This document shows, piece by piece, positions 4,901 to 30,443 of a stretch of DNA of 32,000 bases; position 1 is the first letter of the stretch, and every line of letters starts with the position of its first letter. Where the stretch lies: the NCBI RefSeq assembly GCF_000023965.1, contig NC_013202.1, positions 2,220,001 to 2,252,000 of the forward strand, read 5' to 3'. The DNA is from Halomicrobium mukohataei DSM 12286 (GTDB lineage Archaea; Halobacteriota; Halobacteria; Halobacteriales; Haloarculaceae). The notes beneath the pieces were generated by a model. The model made no database searches. It saw only the letters and a list, made by a program, of their open reading frames with translations, and was not told where the DNA came from. The position numbers and the translations under genes were made by a program.

Positions 4901-4960
4901 TCAGATAGGGAGGTTTGGTTTCCGCAAGTTATAGAACCGGGGACATCGAACGCAGTACCA

Positions 4961-6163
4961 ATGACAGATCGGAACATCCACGTGCAGCCGTCTTCTGGGC
5001 TGGCAGTCGAGGAACAGGGCGTCGAAATCGTCGAGCGAAAGGGAATCGGTCACCCGGACTCGATCTGTGACGGCGTCGCGGAGACGGTCTCGCGGGCCCT
5101 CGCACAGACGTACCTCGACCGCTTCGGAACGGTCCTGCACTACAACACCGACGAGAGCCAGCTCGTCGCCGGGACCGCCGCTCCGGCCTTCGGCGGCGGC
5201 GAGGTACTGGAGCCGATCTATCTGCTGATCGTCGGACGCGCGACCAAGTCCTACGAGGGCGAGCGCATTCCCGCGGAGACGATCGCGCTCGAAGCGGCCC
5301 GGGACTACCTGGAAGCGAACTTCCCGTATCTGGACGTCGGGACGGACATCGTCGTCGACGTTCGCCTCGGCGAGGGCAGCGGCGACCTCCAGGACGTGTT
5401 CGGCGACGAGGGCTCCGTGCCGATGGCCAACGACACGAGCTACGGCGTCGGGCACGCACCGCTCTCGGAAACCGAGCAGATCGTCAAGGCCACCGAGCAA
5501 CGGCTCAACGGCGAGTACTCCGTCGACCACCCGGAAGTCGGGCAGGACGTGAAGGTGATGGGCAAGCGCGAGGGCGACCACATCGACGTGACCGTCGCCG
5601 CGGCGATGGTGGATCGACACATCGAGGACCTCGAAGCGTACAAGGACGCCGTCGCCAGCGTCCGCCGATACGTCGAAGACCTCGCCACGGAGTTCACCGA
5701 TCGCACGGTGACGGTCCACGTCAACACCGCCGACGACTACGAAGAGGGGTCGATCTACCTGACGACGACCGGCACCTCCGCCGAGCAGGGCGACGACGGC
5801 TCCGTCGGCCGCGGCAACCGCGCGAACGGCCTGATCACTCCGAACCGACCGATGAGTATGGAGGCCACCTCCGGCAAGAACCCGGTCAACCACATCGGGA
5901 AGATCTACAACCTCCTCTCGACGGAGATCGCAAAGAGCGTCGTCGACGAGGTCGACGGCATCGAACAACTCCAGATCAGACTGCTCTCTCAGATCGGATC
6001 GCCGATCGACGAACCCCACGTCGCCGACGCCGAACTGGTCACCGAGGACGGCGTTACCGTCGCCGACATCGAAGACGAGGTCGAGGCCGCGATCGACGAC
6101 GAACTGGCCGACGTGACCAACGTCACCCGACGCGTCGTCGATGGGGAGCTGTCGACGTTCTAA
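4961..6163 (+). CDS. metK: archaeal-type S-adenosylmethionine synthetase
   Basis: 400 aa. [37 protein letters not shown] and [13 protein letters not shown] are typical of archaeal MAT. Confidence 0.95.
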
Positions 6164-8114: not shown

Positions 8115-9074
8115 TCAGCGGACCCACTCTCTGCTCTGGAGCAGCGACCGCTCTCCGTCGAGGGCGACGTACCACGCGTCGTCGTTCGGGTGGGGGAGCT
8201 GCTCGACCTCGGACAGGCGCTCTTGGAGCGCCGACAGCGCCGTCGACGCCGGGGCGCACTCCTCGTAGCGGCCGTCAATCGCGGCGGTGAGGATCGACCG
8301 CTGGGCTTCGGGCAGGTCGTCGAGCGCGACGAGATACCGCTCGGCGGCGAACGAACGGAGCGCGGACTCGTCCGCGGCGACCCGTTCGAGAGTGTACTCG
8401 AACGTTCGCCGCTCTTTGGTCCCCTCGGAGTCGCCGGCCACGTCGACGCGCATCGTCCGGTCTCGCCACCGGACCCAGGTTCGACTTCCGACGAGCCGCG
8501 AGTCCGTCTCGCCGTCGGGGTAGGGTGCCGGGTACGCTCGGATCGAGAGCTGGCGCTGTGGGAGCCCGTCTCCCTCGCCCTCAGACTCGGGATCTAACGC
8601 TGCCGATTCGAGCGCGGCCCGGTCAGATTCGGGCAGCTCCTCGAAGTGGACGACCGTCGCGCCGTCGGGCGCGGTCTGTCCCTCCTCCCAGGACACGTCC
8701 ATCTCGTAGGCCGGGATCGCATCGACGGCGACGATCTCGGATTTCGTCCGGTAGAACGCGCCGTCGTGGCGTACGATCACGCCGTCACGCAGGGGGCTAG
8801 CGCCGTCGGTCGTGTACGACGCGGGCCCGTCGCTGGCTGCCCGTTCGACGATCGACCGCTCCGTCTCGTTCAGGTTGGCCGGGAGGTCGGCGGCCGGTGC
8901 GTACGGCCCGGTCGTGAGGACGATCCCCGACGTACAGCTGTCCGTTTCGGAGCCGTTCGGGCTCGAAGTCGGCGATCGCTGGTCCCGGCGGTCGCTCTCC
9001 GGATCGGTCCCGACACAGCCGGCCGCCAGCAGCGAGGCGCTGGCTGCGAGGACGCGGCGGCGAGATCGTTGCAT
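8115..9074 (-). CDS. Tat-secreted lipoprotein, function unknown
   Basis: MQRSRRRVLAASASLLAAGC has a twin-arginine motif plus a lipobox Cys. GTTTATC (minus sense, about 9097-9104) is a TATA-like box. Confidence 0.8.
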   Translation of the reverse strand: MQRSRRRVLAASASLLAAGCVGTDPESDRRDQRSPTSSPNGSETDSCTSGIVLTTGPYAPAADLPANLNETERSIVERAASDGPASYTTDGASPLRDGVIVRHDGAFYRTKSEIVAVDAIPAYEMDVSWEEGQTAPDGATVVHFEELPESDRAALESAALDPESEGEGDGLPQRQLSIRAYPAPYPDGETDSRLVGSRTWVRWRDRTMRVDVAGDSEGTKERRTFEYTLERVAADESALRSFAAERYLVALDDLPEAQRSILTAAIDGRYEECAPASTALSALQERLSEVEQLPHPNDDAWYVALDGERSLLQSREWVR

Positions 9075-9147
9075 ACCCGTCCCTGCCGTCCGTACTGATA
9101 AACTCCTTGTGGAGGCTCAAAACGCGGTCGAGGCGACCTCGGAGGGG

Positions 9148-9315
9148 ACTGTCGCGGCCATCGAACGTCGATGCAGACCCGACCGCACGACGGCAGTGCG
9201 ATCGGTGTGTGAATCCGTTCATACGGAACGTTGTAGTTGCTTACCGGTGAGCGTCGCCACGGGGTAGACGCTCACCGGTAAATTCCTACAACCGTCCGTA
9301 TCAATCGCTACTGTA
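9148..9315. mobile_element. type A palindromic element, second copy, inverted relative to 3073-3156, diverged and interrupted by the type B element
   Basis: 9184-9210 is the exact reverse complement of 3096-3122 (27 nt). 9171-9210 versus 3096-3135 matches at 38/40. Weaker similarity continues to about 9148, and across the insertion to 9304-9315. Confidence 0.6.
9219..9303. mobile_element. type B palindromic element, copy 1 (79-nt palindrome 9222-9300 flanked by TCA...TCA, which is TGA on the cysK strand)
   Basis: TCA TACGGAACGTTGTAGTTGCTTACCGGTGAGCGTC GCCACGGGGTA GACGCTCACCGGTAAATTCCTACAACCGTCCGTA TCA. The right-hand TCA (9301-9303) is the cysK stop codon. Confidence 0.75.
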
Positions 9316-10227
9316 CTCGTCGAACATCCCCGTCGACATGTAGCGCTCGCCGCTGTCCCAGTAGACGGTCACGACGAGCGGGTCCGCGACGCCCTCGTCG
9401 AGCAACTCGGCGGCCTTCTCTCTGGCGGCGAGGTTCGACGCCCCGGAGGACTGGCCCACGAGGATCCCCTCCTCGCGCGCCAGCCGTCGGCACTCGGCTT
9501 CGGCGTCGGCGAGTTCGACCGTCGTCACCGAATCGAGCAGCTCCACGTCGAGGTTCGGGCTGACGAAGCCCGGCCCCATCCCCTGGAAGCTGTCCTCGCC
9601 GGTCCCGGGCTCCTGGCCCGAGAGGACGGCGTTGTCGGCCGGCTCGACGCCGACGATGTCCACGTCCGGGAACGCCTCGCGGAGCCGCCGGCCGACGCCG
9701 GTGACGGTCCCGCCCGTGCCGATGCCGGCGACGAACGCGTCGATGGTCCGGTCGCCGACCTGCTCGACGATCTCCGGCCCCGTCGTCTCGTAGTGTGCCC
9801 GGGGGTTGGCCTCGTTCTCGAACTGCCGGAGCTGGACGTACCCCTCTTCGGCTTCGAGTTCGTCGGCACGGTCCTTCGCTGCGGAGATGTCGCCGTCGAC
9901 GAGTTCGATCTCCGCGCCGTAGGCTGCCATTATCTGGCGGCGCTCGGGCGACTTCGAGCCCGGCATCACGAGGCGCACGTCGTACCCCTTGGCCGCGCCG
10001 GCCATCGCGAGCCCGATCCCCGTGTTGCCACTCGTCGGCTCGACGAGCGCGTCGCCCTCGGTCAGCTCGCCGGCCTCCTCGGCGGCCTCGATCATGAACC
10101 GCGCCGGTCGGTCCTTCGCGGAACCGCCGGGGTTGAACGACTCGACCTTGGCTGCGACCGTCGCTCCCTCGGGAGCCGCGACCGAGACGAGCGGCGACCC
10201 CAGCGTCTCCAGGATTGTCTCGTTCAT
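9301..10227 (-). CDS. cysK: cysteine synthase A (O-acetylserine sulfhydrylase), PLP-dependent
   Basis: SFNPGGSAKDR (PLP lysine), TSGNTGIGLA, GIGTGGT and GERYMSTGMF motifs. 308 aa. Confidence 0.93.
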   Translation of the reverse strand: MNETILETLGSPLVSVAAPEGATVAAKVESFNPGGSAKDRPARFMIEAAEEAGELTEGDALVEPTSGNTGIGLAMAGAAKGYDVRLVMPGSKSPERRQIMAAYGAEIELVDGDISAAKDRADELEAEEGYVQLRQFENEANPRAHYETTGPEIVEQVGDRTIDAFVAGIGTGGTVTGVGRRLREAFPDVDIVGVEPADNAVLSGQEPGTGEDSFQGMGPGFVSPNLDVELLDSVTTVELADAEAECRRLAREEGILVGQSSGASNLAAREKAAELLDEGVADPLVVTVYWDSGERYMSTGMFDEYSSD

Positions 10228-10250
10228 TACCGCCCTCTTGACGGTCCCCG

Positions 10251-10258
10251 GTTAAAAC
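10251..10258 (-). promoter_or_regulatory. TATA-like box for cysK (GTTTTAAC on the minus strand), 24-31 nt upstream of the ATG; implies a leaderless mRNA
   Basis: An AT-rich octamer in otherwise GC-rich spacer, at the canonical archaeal distance. Confidence 0.4.
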
Positions 10259-10299
10259 CCTCCCCGTCACCAGCATGGCGTGCCGTTACCGGTGACGAC

Positions 10300-10384
10300 T
10301 GATACGGATTATTGTAGCGATTTACCGGTGATCGTCTACTCCGTGGCGACGATCACCGGTAAGCAACTACAATAAACCGTATGA
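10300..10384. mobile_element. type B palindromic element, copy 2 (79-nt palindrome 10303-10381 flanked by TGA...TGA), inverted relative to copy 1
   Basis: TGA TACGGATTATTGTAGCGATTTACCGGTGATCGTC TACTCCGTGGC GACGATCACCGGTAAGCAACTACAATAAACCGTA TGA. Its reverse complement matches 9219-9303 at 73/85 positions. Confidence 0.75.
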
Positions 10385-10395
10385 GAGAGCGCGAG

Positions 10396-10403
10396 CGTTA
10401 AGC
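10396..10403 (+). promoter_or_regulatory. TATA-like box (CGTTAAGC) about 27 nt upstream of the thioredoxin-fold gene ATG
   Basis: Position and AT content. It lies 12 nt to the right of type B copy 2. Confidence 0.35.
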
Positions 10404-10426
10404 GACTCCGGGCGCTACTCCGGGGT

Positions 10427-10810
10427 ATGCCACTGACAACGATGGAACCCAACCCCGTCTGGTCGGAGGGTGCCTACGAGGACACCGTCGACGTGCTGGC
10501 CGAGCACCGCGACGAACTGGTCTACAAGGTCTGGGGCGGCGACTGGTGCAAGGACTGCCGCTCGCAACTGCCCGACTTCGGCGCGGCGCTAGACGCCGCC
10601 GAGGTCCCCGAAGAGAACGTCGTCCACCACGAGACCGAGAAGGAAGACGACGGCTCGAAGACCGGCCCGGGCGTCGAGGAGTACGGGATCGAGTACATCC
10701 CGACCGTGGTGGTCGAACGCGACGGCGAGGAGATCGCACGCTTCGTCGAGGACGCCGACGTTCCGATTGCCGTCTCTCTCGCCGAGGAGATCCAGGCGGC
10801 ACTCGACTGA
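10427..10810 (+). CDS. thioredoxin-fold protein (CxxC = WCKDC)
   Basis: VWGGDWCKDCRSQLP and IEYIPTVVV fit a thioredoxin-like fold. An alternative start is M6 at 10442. Confidence 0.8.
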   Translation: MPLTTMEPNPVWSEGAYEDTVDVLAEHRDELVYKVWGGDWCKDCRSQLPDFGAALDAAEVPEENVVHHETEKEDDGSKTGPGVEEYGIEYIPTVVVERDGEEIARFVEDADVPIAVSLAEEIQAALD

Positions 10811-10822
10811 TACTGCCGGCTG

Positions 10823-11476
10823 TCACTCGCTGCATCTGAGCGTTTGGACGGTCGGGAGATTCCAGCTGAAGGTAACCGCAGCCAACCGCGTTACCACAAC
10901 TACCCCCGCGCACACGCCAGCAGCAGTGCCCTCGGCCACACCGACCGTGCCCGCAAGCCAGTACGCGATGCCACCGAGGACTGCGCAACTCGCGTAGAAG
11001 TCTTCGAAGAGGATGAACGGCGGTCGGTCGAGTAAAATATCCGCAAATGCTCCGCCTCCGACGGCGTTTATCGTCCCGATAGCAACGATACCGAAGGCTG
11101 ACACGCCGGCTTCGGTGGCGACGATCGCCCCCGCCGTCGTAAATGCCGCCAAGCCGATGGCATCTGAGACGACCGTCACCGGATGCGTATCTGGCGTCGG
11201 CAGAACGATACTCAGCGTGACGGCCAGGCCAACGCCGAGCAGTCCCAGTCCGATTTCGACTGGCGACTGGAGGGCAAGCGGGATTCGGGTCACGAGTAGA
11301 TCGCGTGTCGCCCCGCCAGCAAACGCCATCGCCAATCCGACGATGGTGATGCCAAACAGGTCGAACTCTTCGCGGATCGCTTTCGAGGCCCCGACGAGTG
11401 CGAACGCCACCAGACCGATCGTGTTCATCACCGCGAACGGATCGCCGAACAGTGTCTGGAGGGCGCTCTGACCCAT
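10823..11476 (-). CDS. TRIC / UPF0126 (YadS-like) membrane channel family protein
   Basis: Two internal repeats carry the glycine motifs AGGATRDLL and VGGGAFADILL. Multi-pass hydrophobic protein of 217 aa. Confidence 0.85.
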   Translation of the reverse strand: MGQSALQTLFGDPFAVMNTIGLVAFALVGASKAIREEFDLFGITIVGLAMAFAGGATRDLLVTRIPLALQSPVEIGLGLLGVGLAVTLSIVLPTPDTHPVTVVSDAIGLAAFTTAGAIVATEAGVSAFGIVAIGTINAVGGGAFADILLDRPPFILFEDFYASCAVLGGIAYWLAGTVGVAEGTAAGVCAGVVVVTRLAAVTFSWNLPTVQTLRCSE

Positions 11477-11534
11477 TACGTTCGCCTTTGTGGGTGTCTC
11501 TCTTGAGTGCTACGTATCAGCGAACGCCACCTCG

Positions 11535-11570
11535 TACGATCGGCTGTCCATCTGTGACAGCCGGCAGTGT
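11535..11570 (-). repeat. short-form relative of the type C palindrome
   Basis: The minus strand reads ACACTGCCGGCTGTCAC agatg GACAGCCGATCGTA. ACTGCCGGCTGTCAC (revcomp of 11554-11568) is identical to 15487-15501 and 10812-10826. Confidence 0.55.
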
Positions 11571-11700
11571 TAGACCGTCCGGTTCAACTGTCCCGCAGGG
11601 GCCTGCGATCTGGAGAGTGACCCGCGCGTCGGTGGATCTGTTGCCGGCGACCATCGTCGGACGGCCGTGACGACGGTGTGGCGGATTCGGGTTGGTTTTC

Positions 11701-11982
11701 CTACTCGCTCCTCCCGGTCCGGTGCCACCAGTAGAGCACGCCGACACCGGCGAGCGCGGCGACACCGACGGCGACCAGCGCACCGGCCAGGGACCACTGG
11801 CCGAGGACGACGCCGTACAGCGCGCCGAGGCTGACGGCGGCGAGCCCGAACTGTGACAGCACCAGCGCGGCGACGAACGCCCAGAACGTCCCCCGCGAGA
11901 CCTCGCCGACGGTCGCAGCCGTCACGTCCGGCGACGCATCGTCTTCGGTCAGCAGTGAGAAGGGGTCGAGCACGTTACGCAC
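11701..11982 (-). CDS. small two-helix membrane protein, function unknown
   Basis: 93 aa with two hydrophobic stretches (FWAFVAALVLSQFGLAAVSLGALYGVV and LAGALVAVGVAALAGVGVLYWW). GC-rich third positions. Confidence 0.6.
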   Translation of the reverse strand: MRNVLDPFSLLTEDDASPDVTAATVGEVSRGTFWAFVAALVLSQFGLAAVSLGALYGVVLGQWSLAGALVAVGVAALAGVGVLYWWHRTGRSE

Positions 11983-12033
11983 CGCTCGAAGGCGGCCACG
12001 CCGACGGAGACGATCCGGAGACGGTGCGCCGTC

Positions 12034-14181
12034 TCACGCCTGCTCTGTCGCCCAGTCGAGCGCGTTCCGCAGGTGGTGTTGTGGCGGCGAACACGTGAAC
12101 TGGCGGCAGGCGTAGACGGTCGCCTCGCCGTCGCGCTCGGTCCGATCTGCCCAGATCGGTGGGACATCGTCCAGCCCCAGCACGTCGAGCCACGCGTCGA
12201 GGTCGCCGTCGCCCGGCGGCCGCCACGCGAGCAGTCGGTCCGGGAGGTACGTCTCGGCCAGCGTCGTTCGCCACTCCGCCGGGACCTCGTCGGCGACCAG
12301 CGTGAGTTCGAGGTCGCCCCGCAGATACCGGTCGGCCGCGACGACCAGCGAGGCGTGTTGCATCGGATTCGCCTCGATCTTGTTGGCGTGTGTCTCCAGG
12401 ACGCCCGCCGCGATCGTCTCGAAGCGATCGTGCGGGACGAACGCCGACAGCGAGAGCAGCGCCTGGACCGCGACGCCGGTGCTGGAGGGCGTCGACTGGT
12501 CGGTGAGCTCCTGTGGGCGGGCCACCAGCGACTCGCCGCTGGTCGGGGTGAAGTACAGCGTGCCGTCGTCCGCGTCCCAGAACTCTCGCTCGATGGCGTG
12601 GGCGAGGTCCAGAGCGAAGGCGAGGTGTTCGACTTCGCCGGTCGCCTCGAACAGCGTCAGCGCGCCGCGAGCGAGGAAGGCGTAGTCTTCGAGGTACCCG
12701 TCGATCGCCACGTCGCCGTCCTTGTAGCGCCGCGCCAGCCGTTGCTCGCTCTCGTCCCAGAGGTGTTCGCGGACGAACGCGAGGGCGTCGGCGGCCGGGT
12801 CCGGATCGACATCATCGAGGACGATCGCGCCCTCCGCGATGGCCGTGATCATCAGTCCGTTCCAGCCCGCGAGCACCTTCTCGTCGCGTGCGGGGCGTGG
12901 CCGCTCCTCGCGTGCCTCGAAGACCTGCTCGCGTGCGCTTGCCAGCGTGCGCTCGACGTCGCTCGCTTCGAGGCCGCTGGACTCGCTCAGGGCCTCGATG
13001 GAGGCGTCGACGGTCAGCACCGTCTTGCCCTCGAAGTTGCCCGACTCGGTGATCCCGAAGCGGTCACACAGCAGGTCGGCCGCCGTCTCGCTGTCCACGG
13101 CCGCGCGGACCTCATCGGGGATCCAGACGAAGTACGCGCCCTCCTCGGGCTCGGCGTCTGCGTCCTCGCGACGGCCGGCGGGTGGGACGCTCTGTGCGTC
13201 GAGCGTGCTGAAGAAGCCGCCGTCCTCGTGTGTGAGTTCGCGCTCGACGAAGGCGAACGTCTCCCGAGCGACCTCCGCGTACCGCTCGTCGCCGGTGAGC
13301 TGGTAGCCCGCGAGGTAGGCTCGCGGGAGCGTCGCGTTGTCGTAGAGCATCTTCTCGAAGTGGGGAACGACCCACTCCCGGTCCGTGCAGTAGCGGTGGA
13401 AGCCGCCGCCGACGTGGTCGAAGAGCCCGCCGTCGGCCATCGCATCGAGCGTCTCGGTGACGACCGAGCGCACGTCGTCGCGGTCCGAACGGGCGACCTC
13501 GCGCATGAGGTAGTGGAGTCGCCCCGGCTGTGGGAACTTCGGGCCGTTCCCCCAGCCGCCGTGTTCGCGGTCTGCGGCCCGAATCGCGGCGTCGACGGCC
13601 GCCTGCAGCGCCTCGTCGTCGGGCACGTCGCCCGGCTGCCCCACGTCGCCGACGTCGCTCTCGATGGCGTCGGTCCACTGCCGAGCGCGGTTGTACATCT
13701 CCTCGCGTTGCTCCGAATCGGACCACGAACCCGCGATGTCTTCGAGCAGCTGACCGAACGCCGGCATCCCGCGGCGCTCCTCGGGTGGGAAGTAGGTCCC
13801 GACGTAGAATGGTTCCCCGTCGGGAGTGAGCCACGCCGACAGCGGCCAGCCACCGCGGCCGGTCACCTGCTGACAGATGCTCATGTAGATGGCGTCGAGG
13901 TCCGGGCGCTCCTCGCGGTCGACCTTGATCGGGACGAAGTGCTCGTTGAGTAGCGTCGCCGTCTCGGGGTCGGAGAAGCTCTCGTCTTCCATGACGTGAC
14001 ACCAGTGACACGCCGAGTACCCGATCGAGAGGAAGATCGGCGCGTCGTGTTCTCTGGCGGTTTCGAGTGCCTGTTCGTCCCACGGCTGCCAGTTGACGGG
14101 GTTGTCCGCGTGCTGGCGGAGGTAGGGACTCTCCGCCTCGTCGAGGCGGTTCCGGTCCGTCGGACCCGAGTCGCTGCTCAT
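12034..14181 (-). CDS. thioredoxin-domain protein of the DUF255 / YyaL family (thioredoxin-like N-terminus plus six-hairpin domain)
   Basis: Internal ATG (M34) of track ORF 12034..14280. NRLDEAESPYLRQHADNPVNWQPW and FLSIGYSACHWCHVMEDESF are the hallmark N-terminus. 715 aa. Confidence 0.9.
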   Translation of the reverse strand: MSSDSGPTDRNRLDEAESPYLRQHADNPVNWQPWDEQALETAREHDAPIFLSIGYSACHWCHVMEDESFSDPETATLLNEHFVPIKVDREERPDLDAIYMSICQQVTGRGGWPLSAWLTPDGEPFYVGTYFPPEERRGMPAFGQLLEDIAGSWSDSEQREEMYNRARQWTDAIESDVGDVGQPGDVPDDEALQAAVDAAIRAADREHGGWGNGPKFPQPGRLHYLMREVARSDRDDVRSVVTETLDAMADGGLFDHVGGGFHRYCTDREWVVPHFEKMLYDNATLPRAYLAGYQLTGDERYAEVARETFAFVERELTHEDGGFFSTLDAQSVPPAGRREDADAEPEEGAYFVWIPDEVRAAVDSETAADLLCDRFGITESGNFEGKTVLTVDASIEALSESSGLEASDVERTLASAREQVFEAREERPRPARDEKVLAGWNGLMITAIAEGAIVLDDVDPDPAADALAFVREHLWDESEQRLARRYKDGDVAIDGYLEDYAFLARGALTLFEATGEVEHLAFALDLAHAIEREFWDADDGTLYFTPTSGESLVARPQELTDQSTPSSTGVAVQALLSLSAFVPHDRFETIAAGVLETHANKIEANPMQHASLVVAADRYLRGDLELTLVADEVPAEWRTTLAETYLPDRLLAWRPPGDGDLDAWLDVLGLDDVPPIWADRTERDGEATVYACRQFTCSPPQHHLRNALDWATEQA

Positions 14182-14294
14182 AGCCGACCGTCCGGGTGGC
14201 AGACGGGAAAGCCTGTCCGTCTCTGGGGTCGTCGATCCGCGTCCGAACGTGACCGGTGACACGATGTCTCTCGGTCGCACTGTCGCCCCACGAT

Positions 14295-14346
14295 CGGCTG
14301 TCGGTTGGCTTTCATGGCCGCTACAGTTTGGTCCGATCGATAGCCG
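14295..14346 (-). repeat. diverged relative of the type C palindrome arms
   Basis: CGGCTGTCG (14295-14303) pairs with CGATAGCCG (14338-14346) with one mismatch. CACGATCGGCTGTC (14289-14302) matches TACGATCGGCTGTC (11535-11548) at 13/14. Confidence 0.4.
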
Positions 14347-14447
14347 ACTACCTTCGATCTGGGGTCACTGAACTGACCGATTAGTGGCGGACTTACCGGC
14401 CGTACACGACCCATTACGAAATCGATACGCCGAGTAGGGTACCACCG

Positions 14448-15485
14448 ATGAGTCCAACAGACGACGCGACCGACGAGAACGGCGTCGACCGACGACGCGT
14501 GCTGAAGACGATCGGAGCGGCGACCGCGGGGCTGCTCGCCGCCAGCGGCACTGCAGCGGCACACGAGGCCCAGTTCGAGGGCTGTGATCGCGTCTGTACG
14601 GGGACGGAGGGCAGTTTCGCCGTCGTCGCCGTCGACGGGAGCTTCACCTGTCGCCCGATGACGGCGACGAGCGGCGTCGACGTGCCCTGGAGCTGGCAGA
14701 GCTACTGTTACGAGGCGTCGGCCGACGAGGCGATCGTCGGGCTGCTCGAAGAGAACGTCGTCCGGGGCGGAACTACCGATTCGAGCGGCTCGTGTAGCCT
14801 GTGTGTTAACCCCAACGACTGCGCCGCGTCGGCCTACGACAGCGTCGACGATATCGTGGCGGCCCTGGACCAGAACGACGCCTGTGGCGTGTGCGCAGGA
14901 CACGTCGAGGCAGGGGGCGACTGTACGACGTACGCGGTCGACGGCGACAGCGGCAGCGACGGCAGTGGCGGATCGGACGGCGACGACACCGATGGCGGCA
15001 GCGACGGCGGCGACGGCGATGGGAGTGACGAGACGGACGGCAGTGAGACGGGCGACGATAGCTCGGACGGAGACGACCCAGACGGCGGTGGTGTGGACGA
15101 TGGCGACGAGGACGACGGAGACGATGGCGGCGGTGACGACGGTGGTGCGGACGATGGCGACGGGAGCGATGACAATAATGACGACAATGACGACGGAGAC
15201 GATGGCGGCGGTGACGACTACGATACGAACCAGCACTACTCGGACGACCGAGAGCTCTGGCGCAGCGACCTCGTGGACGACGGCTCGGACGACGGCCCGG
15301 CGTGGGAGTGTGAGAACACGACCGAGAACCCGACCGCGATGGAGTTGTGGTACGATCGAGACGACACGCCGGTCGATCCCGCGGACAGAGAACGTTGCGG
15401 GTCGGGAACCGACGAGGACGACGGCCTGCTGACGGCGATGCAGCGGTGGCTCGCTCGCGACGACACGCCCGACAGCCTGGACTGA
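14448..15485 (+). CDS. Tat-secreted cysteine-rich protein with an Asp/Gly/Ser low-complexity tract of about 100 aa
   Basis: Tat signal DRRRVLKTIGAATAGLLAASGTAAA. 12 Cys residues, 10 of them in the first roughly 165 aa. Acidic tract from about 14940 to 15234. The C-terminal region repeats W-x-x-RDDTP. Confidence 0.8.
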   Translation: MSPTDDATDENGVDRRRVLKTIGAATAGLLAASGTAAAHEAQFEGCDRVCTGTEGSFAVVAVDGSFTCRPMTATSGVDVPWSWQSYCYEASADEAIVGLLEENVVRGGTTDSSGSCSLCVNPNDCAASAYDSVDDIVAALDQNDACGVCAGHVEAGGDCTTYAVDGDSGSDGSGGSDGDDTDGGSDGGDGDGSDETDGSETGDDSSDGDDPDGGGVDDGDEDDGDDGGGDDGGADDGDGSDDNNDDNDDGDDGGGDDYDTNQHYSDDRELWRSDLVDDGSDDGPAWECENTTENPTAMELWYDRDDTPVDPADRERCGSGTDEDDGLLTAMQRWLARDDTPDSLD

Positions 15486-15565
15486 TACTGCCGGCTGTCA
15501 CTGTGTCACGAGATTCGCGATACGGAGTCGCGACATTCGTCACAGACGGACAGCCGGTAGTATGA
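15483..15565. mobile_element. type C palindromic element (77 nt, 15486-15562) flanked by TGA...TGA; the left TGA is the stop of the Cys-rich gene
   Basis: TGA TACTGCCGGCTGTC ACTGTGTCACGAGATTCGCGA TACGGAG TCGCGACATTCGTCACAGACG GACAGCCGGTAGTA TGA. The outer 14-nt arms pair with one G:U. The inner arms pair partially. Confidence 0.7.
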
Positions 15566-15670
15566 GACGGAGTATCGTCGGTGTCCGGGAAGGCGGCCGT
15601 GAGATACGGAGCAGCCGCCGACGCGAGGGGAAAGGCAAGGTTTAGGCCCCTCCCAGTCGCCCCCTCAGGT

Positions 15671-17011
15671 ATGACAGAGACCGTGGTGCTGATCGGTGGC
15701 GGGGGCCGCGAGCACGCGATCGCCCGCTCGCTGGCCGAATCAGAGGCCCGACTGTACGCGTGTGCCGGCAACAGGAACCCCGGAATCGCGGCGCTGGCCG
15801 ACGGGTTCGAGACGCTGGACACGACGAACCCGACGGCGGTCCGGACCTACGCCGACGAGGTCGACGCGACCCTCGCGGTGGTCGGCCCCGAGGCCGCACT
15901 CGAAGCCGGCGTCGCCGACGCGCTCGACGAGGCGGGCGTGTACACGTTCGGTCCCCGGCAGGACGCGGCTCGCATCGAGACGGACAAGGCCTTCCAGCGG
16001 CGGTTCATGCGGGAACACGACATTCCCGGCTGTCCAGACTTCGAGACCTTCGACGACATGGCGGCCGCCTGCGCGTACATCGACGACTACGACGGCGACC
16101 TCGCGGTCAAGCCGGCCGGGCTCACCGGCGGCAAGGGCGTCCGAGTCATCGGCGACCAGGTCACCGCCGAGGAGGCAAAAGAGCATCTCCGGAGTGCGGA
16201 CTACGATCGGGTCGTCCTCGAGGAGCGCCTCGTCGGCGAGGAGTTCACCGTCCAGGCGTTCGTCGCCAACGGTCAGCTCCGGGTCACGCCCGCCGTACAG
16301 GACCACAAGCGCGCCTACGAGGGCGACGAAGGGCCTAACACCGGCGGGATGGGCAGCTACTCCGACGCCGGACTGGAGCTGCCCTTCATGTCGGAAGACG
16401 ACTACATGGAGGCCGTCGACGTGCTCCGGGCGGTCGTCGACGCGCTGGACGACTACAAGGGCGTCCTCTACGGGCAGTTCATGCTCACCGCCGACGGGAT
16501 CAAGGTCGTCGAGTTCAACGCTCGCTTCGGCGATCCGGAGGCGATGAACACGCTGCCCGTCCTCAACACCGACTTCCTCGACGTGCTGACGGCGGCCCGC
16601 GAGGACGAGCCCCTGCCACAGCTCTCGTTCGCCCCGAAGGCGACGGTCTGCAAGTACGCCGTCCCCGAGGGCTACCCGACCGAGCCGAAAGCCGGTGCGA
16701 AAGTGAAAATCGACGAGGACAGCGTGGCGAAAGCCACGGAACGGTCGAGCGGCGACGAGCCGCGAGACAGCGCCGGTGACGCGCTCCTGTTCTACGCCAG
16801 CGTCGACGAGCGCGACGACGGCATCTACACGACGACGTCCCGGTCGTTCGCCGTCGTCGGCCTGGCGGAGACGATCACCGAGGCCGAGGAGATCGCGGAG
16901 GCGGCCCTCGACGCTGCCGGCGAGGACGGGGTCCGGATGCGCCACGACATCGGCAAGCCCGACCTCGTCCAGCAGCGGATCGACCACGTGAACGAACTGC
17001 GCGGCGAGTAA
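15671..17011 (+). CDS. purD: phosphoribosylamine-glycine ligase
   Basis: Internal ATG at 15671 of track ORF 15581..17011. MTETVVLIGGGGREHAI, ATP-grasp region and VVEFNARFGDPE. GGTTTAGG at 15639-15646 is a TATA-like box. Confidence 0.95.
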   Translation: MTETVVLIGGGGREHAIARSLAESEARLYACAGNRNPGIAALADGFETLDTTNPTAVRTYADEVDATLAVVGPEAALEAGVADALDEAGVYTFGPRQDAARIETDKAFQRRFMREHDIPGCPDFETFDDMAAACAYIDDYDGDLAVKPAGLTGGKGVRVIGDQVTAEEAKEHLRSADYDRVVLEERLVGEEFTVQAFVANGQLRVTPAVQDHKRAYEGDEGPNTGGMGSYSDAGLELPFMSEDDYMEAVDVLRAVVDALDDYKGVLYGQFMLTADGIKVVEFNARFGDPEAMNTLPVLNTDFLDVLTAAREDEPLPQLSFAPKATVCKYAVPEGYPTEPKAGAKVKIDEDSVAKATERSSGDEPRDSAGDALLFYASVDERDDGIYTTTSRSFAVVGLAETITEAEEIAEAALDAAGEDGVRMRHDIGKPDLVQQRIDHVNELRGE

Positions 17012-24850: not shown

Positions 24851-24931
24851 CAGCTCGTACTGCCCCGTCTCCGTATCGTTCCACGGGACGGAGACGCTCG
24901 CCGGTACGTTCCGACGACCGTCCGTATACTC
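24851..24931. repeat. decayed type B element relic
   Basis: 24881-24929 aligns to 9257-9303 with 39 identities and one 2-nt gap, including ACCGTCCGTAT, CCGGTA and GACGCTC. A residual 9-bp hairpin remains, CGTCTCCGT / ACGGAGACG. Confidence 0.5.
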
Positions 24932-29384: not shown

Positions 29385-30443
29385 ATGCGCCGAATCGGTG
29401 TCGTCGTCAACCCCATCGCTGGGATGGGTGGGCGGGTCGGACTCAAAGGGACGGACGGCAAGGTCGAAGCGGCTCGCGAGCGGGGGGCCGAGCCCCGCGC
29501 ACCCGAGCGTGCGGCCACCGCGCTGGCCGCACTCCGGGAGTACGGCGACGAGATCGAGGTGCTCACTTGGGGCGAGCCGATGGGTGCCGGGGCGGCTCGG
29601 GACGCGGGGTTCGAGCCGGTCGTGCTCGGGGAGCCAGCGGGCGACGAGACGACGAGGGAGGATACGCGGGCCGCCGTACGTGCCTTCCGCGAGCACGGGG
29701 TCGATCTCGTGTTCTTCGTGGGCGGGGACGGCACCGCTGTCGACGTGGCCGAGGAACTCGGCGAGGAGACGCCGATGCTCGGCGTACCGGCCGGCGTCAA
29801 GGTGTACTCGTCTGTCTTCGGCGTCTCACCGCGTGCGGCCGGCCGTATCGCCGCCCGCTTTACCGACACCGAACGGGCGGAGGTCAACGACATCGACGAG
29901 GACGAGTACCGCCGAGGCGAGGTCGTCACCGAGCTTCGGGCCGTCGTTCGCGTCCCACAGGCAGACGAGCGCCAGTCCGCGAAGCAACTCGGCGGCGGCA
30001 CCGTCGAGACGCTGGCCGAGGCCGTCGCAGAGGAGGCACGATCGGGAGTCACCTACGTCCTCGGACCCGGCAGCACCGTCGGCGCGATCAAGTCCGCGCT
30101 GGGGTTCGACGGCACGACCCTGGGCGTCGACGTGTGGCGAGACGGGGCGGTTCTCGTCAGGGACGGCGGCGAGGCGGAGATCGTCGACGCGCTCGGCGAG
30201 GACAACGTCGTGATCGTCTCGCCCATCGGCGGACAGGGGTTCGTCTTCGGCCGGGGGAACCAACAGCTGTCGCCGGCCGTCATCGAACGCTGTGAGATCG
30301 AGGTCGTCGCATCGCGGGCCAAGCTCGACGACATCGGCGTGTTGCGCGTCGACACCGGCGATCCGGAACTGGACGAGCAGTTGCGGGGCTGGCTCCGGGT
30401 GCGCGTCGGGGCCTTCGAGCGCCGTCTCGTCGAGGTCGCCTGA
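29385..30443 (+). CDS. ATP-NAD kinase family protein
   Basis: Internal ATG at 29385 of track ORF 29352..30443. MRRIGVVVNPIAGMGG and LVFFVGGDGTAVDV (GGDGT motif). Confidence 0.85.
   Translation: MRRIGVVVNPIAGMGGRVGLKGTDGKVEAARERGAEPRAPERAATALAALREYGDEIEVLTWGEPMGAGAARDAGFEPVVLGEPAGDETTREDTRAAVRAFREHGVDLVFFVGGDGTAVDVAEELGEETPMLGVPAGVKVYSSVFGVSPRAAGRIAARFTDTERAEVNDIDEDEYRRGEVVTELRAVVRVPQADERQSAKQLGGGTVETLAEAVAEEARSGVTYVLGPGSTVGAIKSALGFDGTTLGVDVWRDGAVLVRDGGEAEIVDALGEDNVVIVSPIGGQGFVFGRGNQQLSPAVIERCEIEVVASRAKLDDIGVLRVDTGDPELDEQLRGWLRVRVGAFERRLVEVA

Follow-up and report, generated by a model that had tools for sequence, protein, structure and literature searches.

The 77-nt hairpin at positions 15486-15562 of a 32,000-nt window of Halomicrobium mukohataei DSM 12286 (contig NC_013202.1, positions 2,220,001 to 2,252,000) starts directly after the TGA stop codon of a gene for a secreted, cysteine-rich protein. 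It is very probably one copy of a non-autonomous DNA transposon, or miniature inverted-repeat transposable element (MITE), which would be moved in trans into T-N-A triplets and whose insertions into stop codons would be near-neutral. Four features that define a MITE are present: the element is small and non-coding, has terminal inverted repeats and a target duplication of fixed length, and occurs as dispersed copies that are polymorphic between strains. The inverted repeats, the 3-bp duplication, the copy number and host range, the polymorphism, an enrichment at stop codons and the lack of any orientation bias are direct observations, set out below.

Between 15480 and 15570 the window reads gac TGA, the arm TACTGCCGGCTGTCACTGTGTCACGAGATTCGCGA, the loop TACGGAG, the arm TCGCGACATTCGTCACAGACGGACAGCCGGTAGTA and TGA gac. 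The left arm spans 15486-15520, the loop 15521-15527 and the right arm 15528-15562; no strand is assigned to the copy, which matches the family model with an nhmmer E-value of 5e-19. Its terminal inverted repeats are TACTGCCGGCTGTC / GACAGCCGGTAGTA, and the whole forms an imperfect palindrome with 35-nt arms around the 7-nt loop, with complementarity at about 27 of 36 positions. Folded as a single strand, it has a predicted energy of -51.8 kcal/mol, against -27 +/- 3.6 for shuffled sequences (z = -6.95), and none of the 200 shuffles folded as well. The left copy of the target-site duplication is the TGA at 15483-15485 (plus strand), which doubles as the stop codon of the open reading frame (ORF) at 14448-15485, and the right copy, read from the sequence, is the TGA at 15563-15565 (plus strand). 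A sequence-only reading of this DNA had already described a 77-nt palindrome with TGA on both sides, the left one being the upstream stop, and this description is accurate.

The hairpin belongs to a large family. GTDB species-representative genomes were scanned with the pattern TACTRCCGGCTGT-N(38-66)-ACAGCCGG, which leaves both flanks and one terminus free, and among the matches listed (the scope of all scan counts given here) there are at least 120 loci, all but 4 chance matches lying in Halobacteriales, so that the earlier suggestion of a multi-copy family holds. Hosts listed include Halomicrobium katesii, Halovenus, Haloarcula, Halapricum, Natrarchaeobius, Halostagnicola, Salinirussus and many metagenome-assembled genomes. 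Copies that are almost identical to one another occur in Halovenus sp. NA-5cm_bin.7 and in Halobacteriales QS_5_68_33 and QS_9_67_15. On PLSDB plasmids, blastn with the element found copies in Halomicrobium and Haloarcula, with type B in further genera; 7-16 plasmid records carry the family, and the consensus query gives 16 (Haloarcula 9, Halomicrobium 3, Natribaculum 3, Haloplanus 1). The PLSDB searches returned no Haloquadratum match. The same pattern gave 0 matches in IMG/VR viral contigs, so carriage by viruses is without evidence there. Members are 77-79 nt long, most commonly 78 nt, and consist of two arms and a loop without coding capacity. The consensus, TACTGCCGGCTGTAAGTCTGTGAAGAATTTCGCCACCCCGGGGTGGCGAATATCTTCACGAAGTTACAGCCGGCAGTA, is a near-perfect palindrome in which three small conserved asymmetric patches give an orientation; the identity of the window copy to this 78-nt sequence is about 78%, and the termini TACTGCCGGCTGT.../...ACAGCCGGCAGTA are conserved in more than 130 copies. 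The hairpin studied here is of type C, while two others in the window are of type B. The two types co-occur in the same genomes and have common termini, TACKRCCGGYTGT, as the sequence-only reading noted, but their interiors are not wholly unrelated, as it had supposed, since both contain a CCACGGGGT-like core.

What marks these hairpins as insertions is the triplet on either side. In 99 of 131 scan copies the same TNA stands at both ends (TCA in 50, TGA in 35, TTA in 7 and TAA in 7), and most of the other flank pairs are one substitution apart. The flanks represent a duplication and not an outward extension of the palindrome, because their central bases are identical, whereas a palindrome would give complementary ones. 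A further 31 copies, 13 of them type B, were found with a hidden Markov model, independently of the scan pattern, and mostly have the same flanks. The corresponding empty sites were sought by comparing two whole plasmids, pLC1Hm-01 and the plasmid of H. mukohataei JP60. Three type B copies are filled in JP60 (at 5979, 113134 and 213044) and empty in pLC1Hm-01 (142699-142701, 43364-43366 and 191198-191200, respectively), while one type B copy at pLC1Hm-01 123655 and one type C copy at pLC1Hm-01 12941 face empty sites in JP60 (52622-52624 and 144684-144686). The first of these copies, JP60 5979, stands at the end of an ABC ATPase gene (JP60 4953..5978, filled; pLC1Hm-01 142060..142701, empty). 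A sixth pair is chromosomal: in H. katesii (locus L140, ~2155-2250) an additional type B copy, flanked by duplicated TCA, sits exactly at the stop codon of a thioredoxin-like gene, beside a type C terminus, where the window (10805-10830) is empty. In all six pairs, five of type B and one of type C, the empty allele has the triplet once. These precise empty sites with a single triplet mean that the elements are mobile and that the duplication is 3 bp long. This supports the view of the hairpins as scattered insertions between direct repeats, but the proposal that they target TGA specifically does not hold: the target is T-N-A with any central base. The ratio of G or C to A or T at the central position is 85:14 in the duplications and 82:18 in all TNA triplets, so the central base is under no preference and simply mirrors the abundance of the triplets. 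There is a preference around the triplet, for C before and G after it (C|TNA|G).

The same evidence bears on whether the element could be of the REP/REPIN or PATE kind, moved as single-stranded DNA by a Y1 transposase (IS200/IS605/RAYT) that recognises the hairpin. A Y1 transposase inserts its element 3' of a fixed 4-5-nt sequence and leaves the target unduplicated. The present family instead has a 3-bp duplication, variable at its centre, in 99 of the 131 copies and in every empty-site pair, and this duplication excludes a Y1 (IS200/RAYT) mechanism. The whole element does fold as a hairpin, the JP60 plasmid has an annotated TnpB gene, and haloarchaea are rich in TnpB/IS605-type elements (PMC3119063). 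However, PATEs lack the terminal inverted repeats that the present family has (PMC3119063), and its termini are TAC...GTA and not the REP tags GTAG/CGTC (PMC3733652). We therefore consider this explanation extremely unlikely.

How strongly are the insertions associated with stop codons? On annotated sequence the flanking triplet is an annotated stop codon in 21 of 39 copies (54%), made up of 11/18 on the JP60 plasmid, 7/15 on pLC1Hm-01 and 3/6 in the window. For unannotated loci, stops were called from the codon-position GC content (periodicity at the third codon position, GC3), with GC1 > GC2 required. An in-frame stop was called at the gene-proximal triplet in 40 of 115 scan copies and at the distal triplet in none. 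Among permissible TNA sites, that is non-coding sites and stop codons, the null stop fraction is 9.7% (binomial p = 2e-13), so the comparison with random expectation that had been proposed comes out clearly in favour of an association. When only C.TNA.G or AC.TNA contexts are considered, the null rises to ~0.21 against an observed ~0.40 (p ~0.02), which leaves an approximately 2-fold excess of stops after context matching. The polymorphic insertions, presumably recent, lie in stop codons in 6 of 6 cases, and in each the empty allele already has that stop. At the stop of a GH2 glycosidase gene, pLC1Hm-01 carries a type C copy (166547-166625) and JP60 a type B copy together with a type C remnant (29965-30099), which indicates repeated insertion at one triplet. 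Called stops have a TGA:TAA ratio of 457:84, with TAG at 25%. A TNA triplet always reads TGA or TAA on one strand, hence duplication always remakes a stop; TAG stops, which are not TNA, cannot serve as targets.

A family member is in essence a pair of ~38-bp terminal inverted repeats joined head to head. We propose the following mechanism, which may be of the cut-and-paste or of the copy-out kind. A transposase supplied in trans would bind the shared termini (TACTGCCGGCTGT...) and make a 3-nt staggered cut at 5'-T-N-A-3', preferably in the context C|TNA|G, and repair of the gaps would duplicate the TNA triplet. Where the target is a real stop codon, the upstream copy of the triplet closes the frame and leaves the protein unchanged. 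Near-neutral insertion into stops, together with the target preference, would then place about half of the copies on stop codons. Insertion of the window copy into the TGA stop of the cysteine-rich gene would predate the split between the sequenced Halomicrobium strains, and the copy would have drifted since. In our reading, the bias reflects a sequence preference for typical gene ends, near-neutral insertion at stops and counter-selection at coding and promoter sites. The sequence-only reading had offered either targeting of TGA or survival where the regenerated TGA preserves a stop; both seem to contribute, with the targeting directed at TNA and not TGA.

The most economical guess for the enzyme is one of the DDE type, by analogy with the 3-bp duplications of PIF/Harbinger and IS5 elements. 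The insertion sequences of the plasmids are limited to an ISH1-like element (termini TGCCTTGTTGAATCC), further DDE_Tnp_1 pseudogenes and genes of the IS1595 and TnpB types, and the sequence examined contains no element of the IS5 or Harbinger family. Unannotated gaps of the plasmids hold ORFs that were considered as possible partners and rejected, being CRISPR-array or rRNA artefacts, the ISH1-like insertion sequence or DDE_Tnp_1 pseudogenes with unrelated termini. Querying every ORF of the loci examined by phmmer with these DDE proteins gave nothing further, and wherever two termini flanked by the same TNA lay 200-5000 bp apart, they belonged to separate MITEs. As an aside, three stretches lack annotation in the PLSDB tables. 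To judge from the repetitive ORFs in their translation, pLC1Hm-01 114.7-119.0 kb resembles a CRISPR array, and pLC1Hm-01 136-142 kb and JP60 37.6-43.5 kb look like rRNA operons.

Several points weigh against the MITE reading as we have formulated it. No autonomous element with matching termini was found in the ~1.3 Mb examined. The scan needs one intact terminus plus the core of the other arm, and old or divergent copies are under-sampled; the stop caller, applied to 71 annotated plasmid genes, had a sensitivity of ~73% and a precision of ~75%. The measured context explains only part of the stop-codon excess. Finally, the flank logo is asymmetric, with K-A-C before TGA and G after it, even at sites called intergenic, which could reflect either unrecognised stops or a further targeting cue. 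The residual excess may leave room for such a more specific cue.

A transposition machinery that recognises gene ends or translation stops beyond bare C|TNA|G, in a programmed safe-harbour strategy and not mainly through survivorship, would account for these last two points, and would fit both the six recent polymorphic insertions in stops and the fact that different types struck the same stop, in the GH2 gene as well as in the thioredoxin-like gene (a type C terminus and the H. katesii type B copy). Possible cues are a DNA or R-loop feature past terminating ribosomes and the resemblance of a TAC/GAC-TGA target to the element end TAC-TGC. We nevertheless regard active recognition of stops as unlikely, since many copies sit in divergent promoters or other spacers: copies between divergent genes are found at window 10303-10381, JP60 9544 and 193672 and pLC1Hm-01 148226 and 154994, and JP60 118737 is a further copy in a promoter region or other spacer. 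Also, the caller misses ~27% of true stops, which inflates the asymmetry at 'intergenic' sites, polymorphic insertions are easier to detect with alignable coding flanks, and insertions into promoters and coding sequence should be removed by purifying selection in any case.

Alternatively, the hairpin could be a functional RNA or DNA structure at gene 3' ends (a stabiliser, terminator or regulator of termination), repeated because of its function. A very stable predicted stem starting right after the stop codon, and a copy kept in six Halomicrobium genomes, are what one would expect from such a role. Bacterial REPs that lie near stop codons can influence the genes upstream. REPs with the GTAG tag often supply TAG stops (PMC3733652). 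But the orientation to the gene is random (8 copies with it and 12 against, p = 0.5), which argues against a strand-specific RNA role; the stem is followed by TGAGACGG with no U-tract; copies also occur in promoter regions; and there are presence/absence alleles with target duplication. Between strains the copy diverges like the adjacent spacer. In Rfam, searched with window 9000-16000 at a permissive E-value, only sub-threshold matches to miRNA precursors appeared, on a type B copy. The hairpin thus has no Rfam match at threshold and lacks the properties of a strand-specific 3' untranslated element or terminator. A structure maintained for its function is in our view very unlikely, while secondary effects on mRNA 3' ends are possible.

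Taking the hairpin as a MITE, which of the known systems does it resemble? Tourist elements and the IS1031/ISL2 groups of IS5 have a triplet of the form TWA/TNA, and some IS5 subgroups make 3-bp duplications; IS5 groups typically begin with GAG/GG. Like IS5/PIF-Harbinger MITEs, the present elements are short, non-coding, bounded by inverted repeats, high in copy number and flanked by a 3-bp T-N-A duplication. Unlike them, they have TAC termini, form a near-complete palindrome of 77-79 bp, are archaeal, favour stop codons and have no parent in the ~1.3 Mb covered. Canonical Harbinger elements, relatives of prokaryotic IS5, duplicate 3 bp of their target (PMC12730594). A Harbinger/IS5-like MITE with 3-bp duplication fits better than a PATE, which the sequence-only reading had named as the closest concept. 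PATEs are also haloarchaeal, non-coding and contain palindromes, placed subterminally at either end, but they are derivatives of IS605/IS1341 ends, 370-690 bp long, without terminal inverted repeats or duplication (PMC3119063), whereas the present family has true terminal inverted repeats, a single hairpin and a 3-bp duplication, and so does not belong with them.

Described haloarchaeal MITEs (MITEHsal, HqIRS35-39, ISH2) share the host group, strain-specific insertions and mobilisation in trans, but are 118-530 bp long, make 5-10-bp duplications and have a known parent ISH (PMC7002104, PMC3119063); the present family is shorter and duplicates a 3-bp TNA. The closest match in architecture (size class and inverted termini), going by its description, is HqIRS41, one of the 'small mobile repeats' of Haloquadratum (H. 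walsbyi C23, FR746099, 1517965-1518044), 79-80 bp long with inverted terminal repeats that match at 17/21 positions and bear no relation to known transposons, and with an 'enigmatic' mobilisation (PMC3119063). These small mobile repeats have a strong target preference, and different elements can occupy the same position ('switch repeats') (PMC3119063). In contrast to the present family with its 3-bp duplication, repeats of the HqIRS41 type reportedly make no duplication, and they have PATE/IS605 palindromes as targets, not stops (PMC3119063). It could be that a 3-bp T..A flank was read as part of the HqIRS41 inverted repeat in the original description.

As regards bacterial elements, the family is like REP/REPIN sequences (GTAG/CGTC tags) in consisting of dispersed extragenic palindromes that often adjoin genes. 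With a length of 77-79 bp, TAC...GTA termini and a TNA duplication it is not one of them. Correia/NEMIS elements of Neisseria are palindromic MITEs that form long hairpins close to genes. They differ in having a TA duplication, a length of 100-155 bp, a bacterial host and no reported preference for stop codons. REPs measure 20-40 bp, bear a tetranucleotide tag and lack a duplication (PMC3733652); they go together with RAYT Y1 transposases. That flanking ORFs often take their TAG stop from a GTAG REP (PMC3733652) is a similarity of outcome and not of mechanism, for in the present family the stop codon pre-exists and gets duplicated. In the literature we found no description of such a family or of its stop-codon habit; ISfinder was outside the scope of the search.

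The window copy itself is old. It is orthologous in six Halomicrobium genomes, after the same stop codon; the other five (H. katesii, two further genomes of the H. mukohataei group, LC1Hm and IBSBa) are all filled, so no empty allele of this copy was found among them, and between strains it has diverged about as much as the spacer beside it. A metagenomic relative (L138), with 90% identity in the cysteine-synthase-like protein, retains that TGA stop but has neither the 15486-15562 element nor the type B copy at 10303-10381. Since the site is filled in all Halomicrobium compared and empty in L138, the insertion must be old and fixed in this clade.

Neither of the two type B copies of the window is assigned a strand. 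The first, at 9222-9300, lies between TCA duplications (9219-9221 and 9301-9303); the second, at 10303-10381, spans 10300-10384 together with its TGA duplications. The right TCA of the first copy (9301-9303) is the TGA stop of a minus-strand cysteine-synthase-like (PALP) gene at 9301-10227. The second lies in the divergent spacer between this PALP gene (start 10227, minus strand) and the thioredoxin-like gene (start 10427, plus strand), in a divergent promoter region and not at a real stop codon; accordingly, of the three hairpins said to lie at or next to stops, two do. In H. urmianum (locus L139, ~8925-9000) a different hairpin of ~60 nt (…ACACATCGAGGGACACCCGGGGTGTCCCTCGAGTGTGT…) follows the cysteine-synthase-like TGA stop, in the place of the window's type B copy. 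Its CCCGGGG centre is similar but the TAC…GTA termini are absent, and it could belong to another family or be a relative in decay.

Remnants are found as well. Directly behind the TGA that ends the thioredoxin-like ORF (10427-10810) comes a solo type C left terminus, TACTGCCGGCTGTCAC; the stretch 10808-10827 (plus strand), which begins with this TGA, is identical to 15483-15502 across 20 nt, and the outgroups L138 and L139 keep the thioredoxin-like TGA stop without this terminus. A core-deleted type C remnant with only the two termini, TACGATCGGCTGTC-catctgt-GACAGCCGGCAGTG, is at 11535-11569 (no strand), and the right half of a type B element is at 24882-24926 (no strand), in a spacer 36 nt downstream of the stop of a GSDH gene (24963). 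On the plasmids, pLC1Hm-01 18551 retains a 15-nt right end where JP60 has a full copy, and degenerate termini stand right after stops at pLC1Hm-01 17044 and 207954. Remnants of the element are common directly 3' of stop codons. The JP60 plasmid also has ~2.5 tandem type C copies after the stop of a helix-turn-helix gene (46524-46725), where the orthologous site in pLC1Hm-01 (129904-129981) has one, and an annotated coding sequence at JP60 94428..94628 (66-aa hypothetical) ends inside a type B copy (94583-94661) and is probably a spurious call due to the element.

A gene for a 217-aa TRIC/UPF0126 membrane protein (10823-11476, minus strand) sits between the type C termini 10811-10826 and 11535-11569, and its stop (TCA, 10823-10825) falls within the first of them. 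The gene is not at this position in the outgroups L138 and H. urmianum L139, and its nearest homologues outside Halomicrobium, from Natrialbaceae and Halorubrum, are 84-86% identical. The bracketing may reflect gene capture or recombination at MITE ends. Could 10811-11569 be a transposon carrying cargo? This seems doubtful, as its flanks are TGA and TTA, so that there is no clean duplication, the outer terminus is missing in H. katesii, and TRIC homologues of other genera are without such termini. One can also imagine a stop-directed safe-harbour system with a transposase outside the described families of insertion sequences, the termini of which might in addition serve as portable sites of recombination or capture, as at this horizontally acquired gene between type C termini on the thioredoxin-like stop, but we would call this scenario improbable.

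The gene upstream of the type C hairpin (14448-15485, plus strand), annotated as a gene on the Halomicrobium chromosome CP045142.1, encodes a highly acidic protein of 345 aa without a Pfam domain. Its product has a twin-arginine signal, 12 cysteines and a long acidic tract, in agreement with the earlier description of it as secreted and cysteine-rich. Across Halomicrobium strains the length of this protein varies from 292 to 374 aa through growth and shrinkage of an Asp/Gly-rich tract. Downstream lies purD (GARS domains; 15671-17011, plus strand), with its start codon 105 nt 3' of the element and a TATA-like TTTAGG (~15642) between them. The spacer between the element and purD also contains a 37-nt indel (window ~15582), which distinguishes the window and H. 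katesii, where it is not present, from other Halomicrobium.

Widely distributed in Halobacteriales, the family shows a strong bias towards stop codons that is explained only in part. In compact, GC-rich haloarchaeal genomes harmless landing sites are a real constraint, and duplication of a stop codon is a simple solution to it. As a consequence, dozens to hundreds of genes in Haloarculaceae, Natrialbaceae and their relatives carry a hairpin of about -50 kcal/mol right after the stop, which may matter for 3'-end formation and for the expression of downstream genes. The elements are useful as strain markers, and annotation pipelines should recognise them, as spurious small ORFs run into them. 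Identification of the parent transposase would show whether the enzyme at work across haloarchaeal genera is Harbinger/IS5-like or of a new kind.

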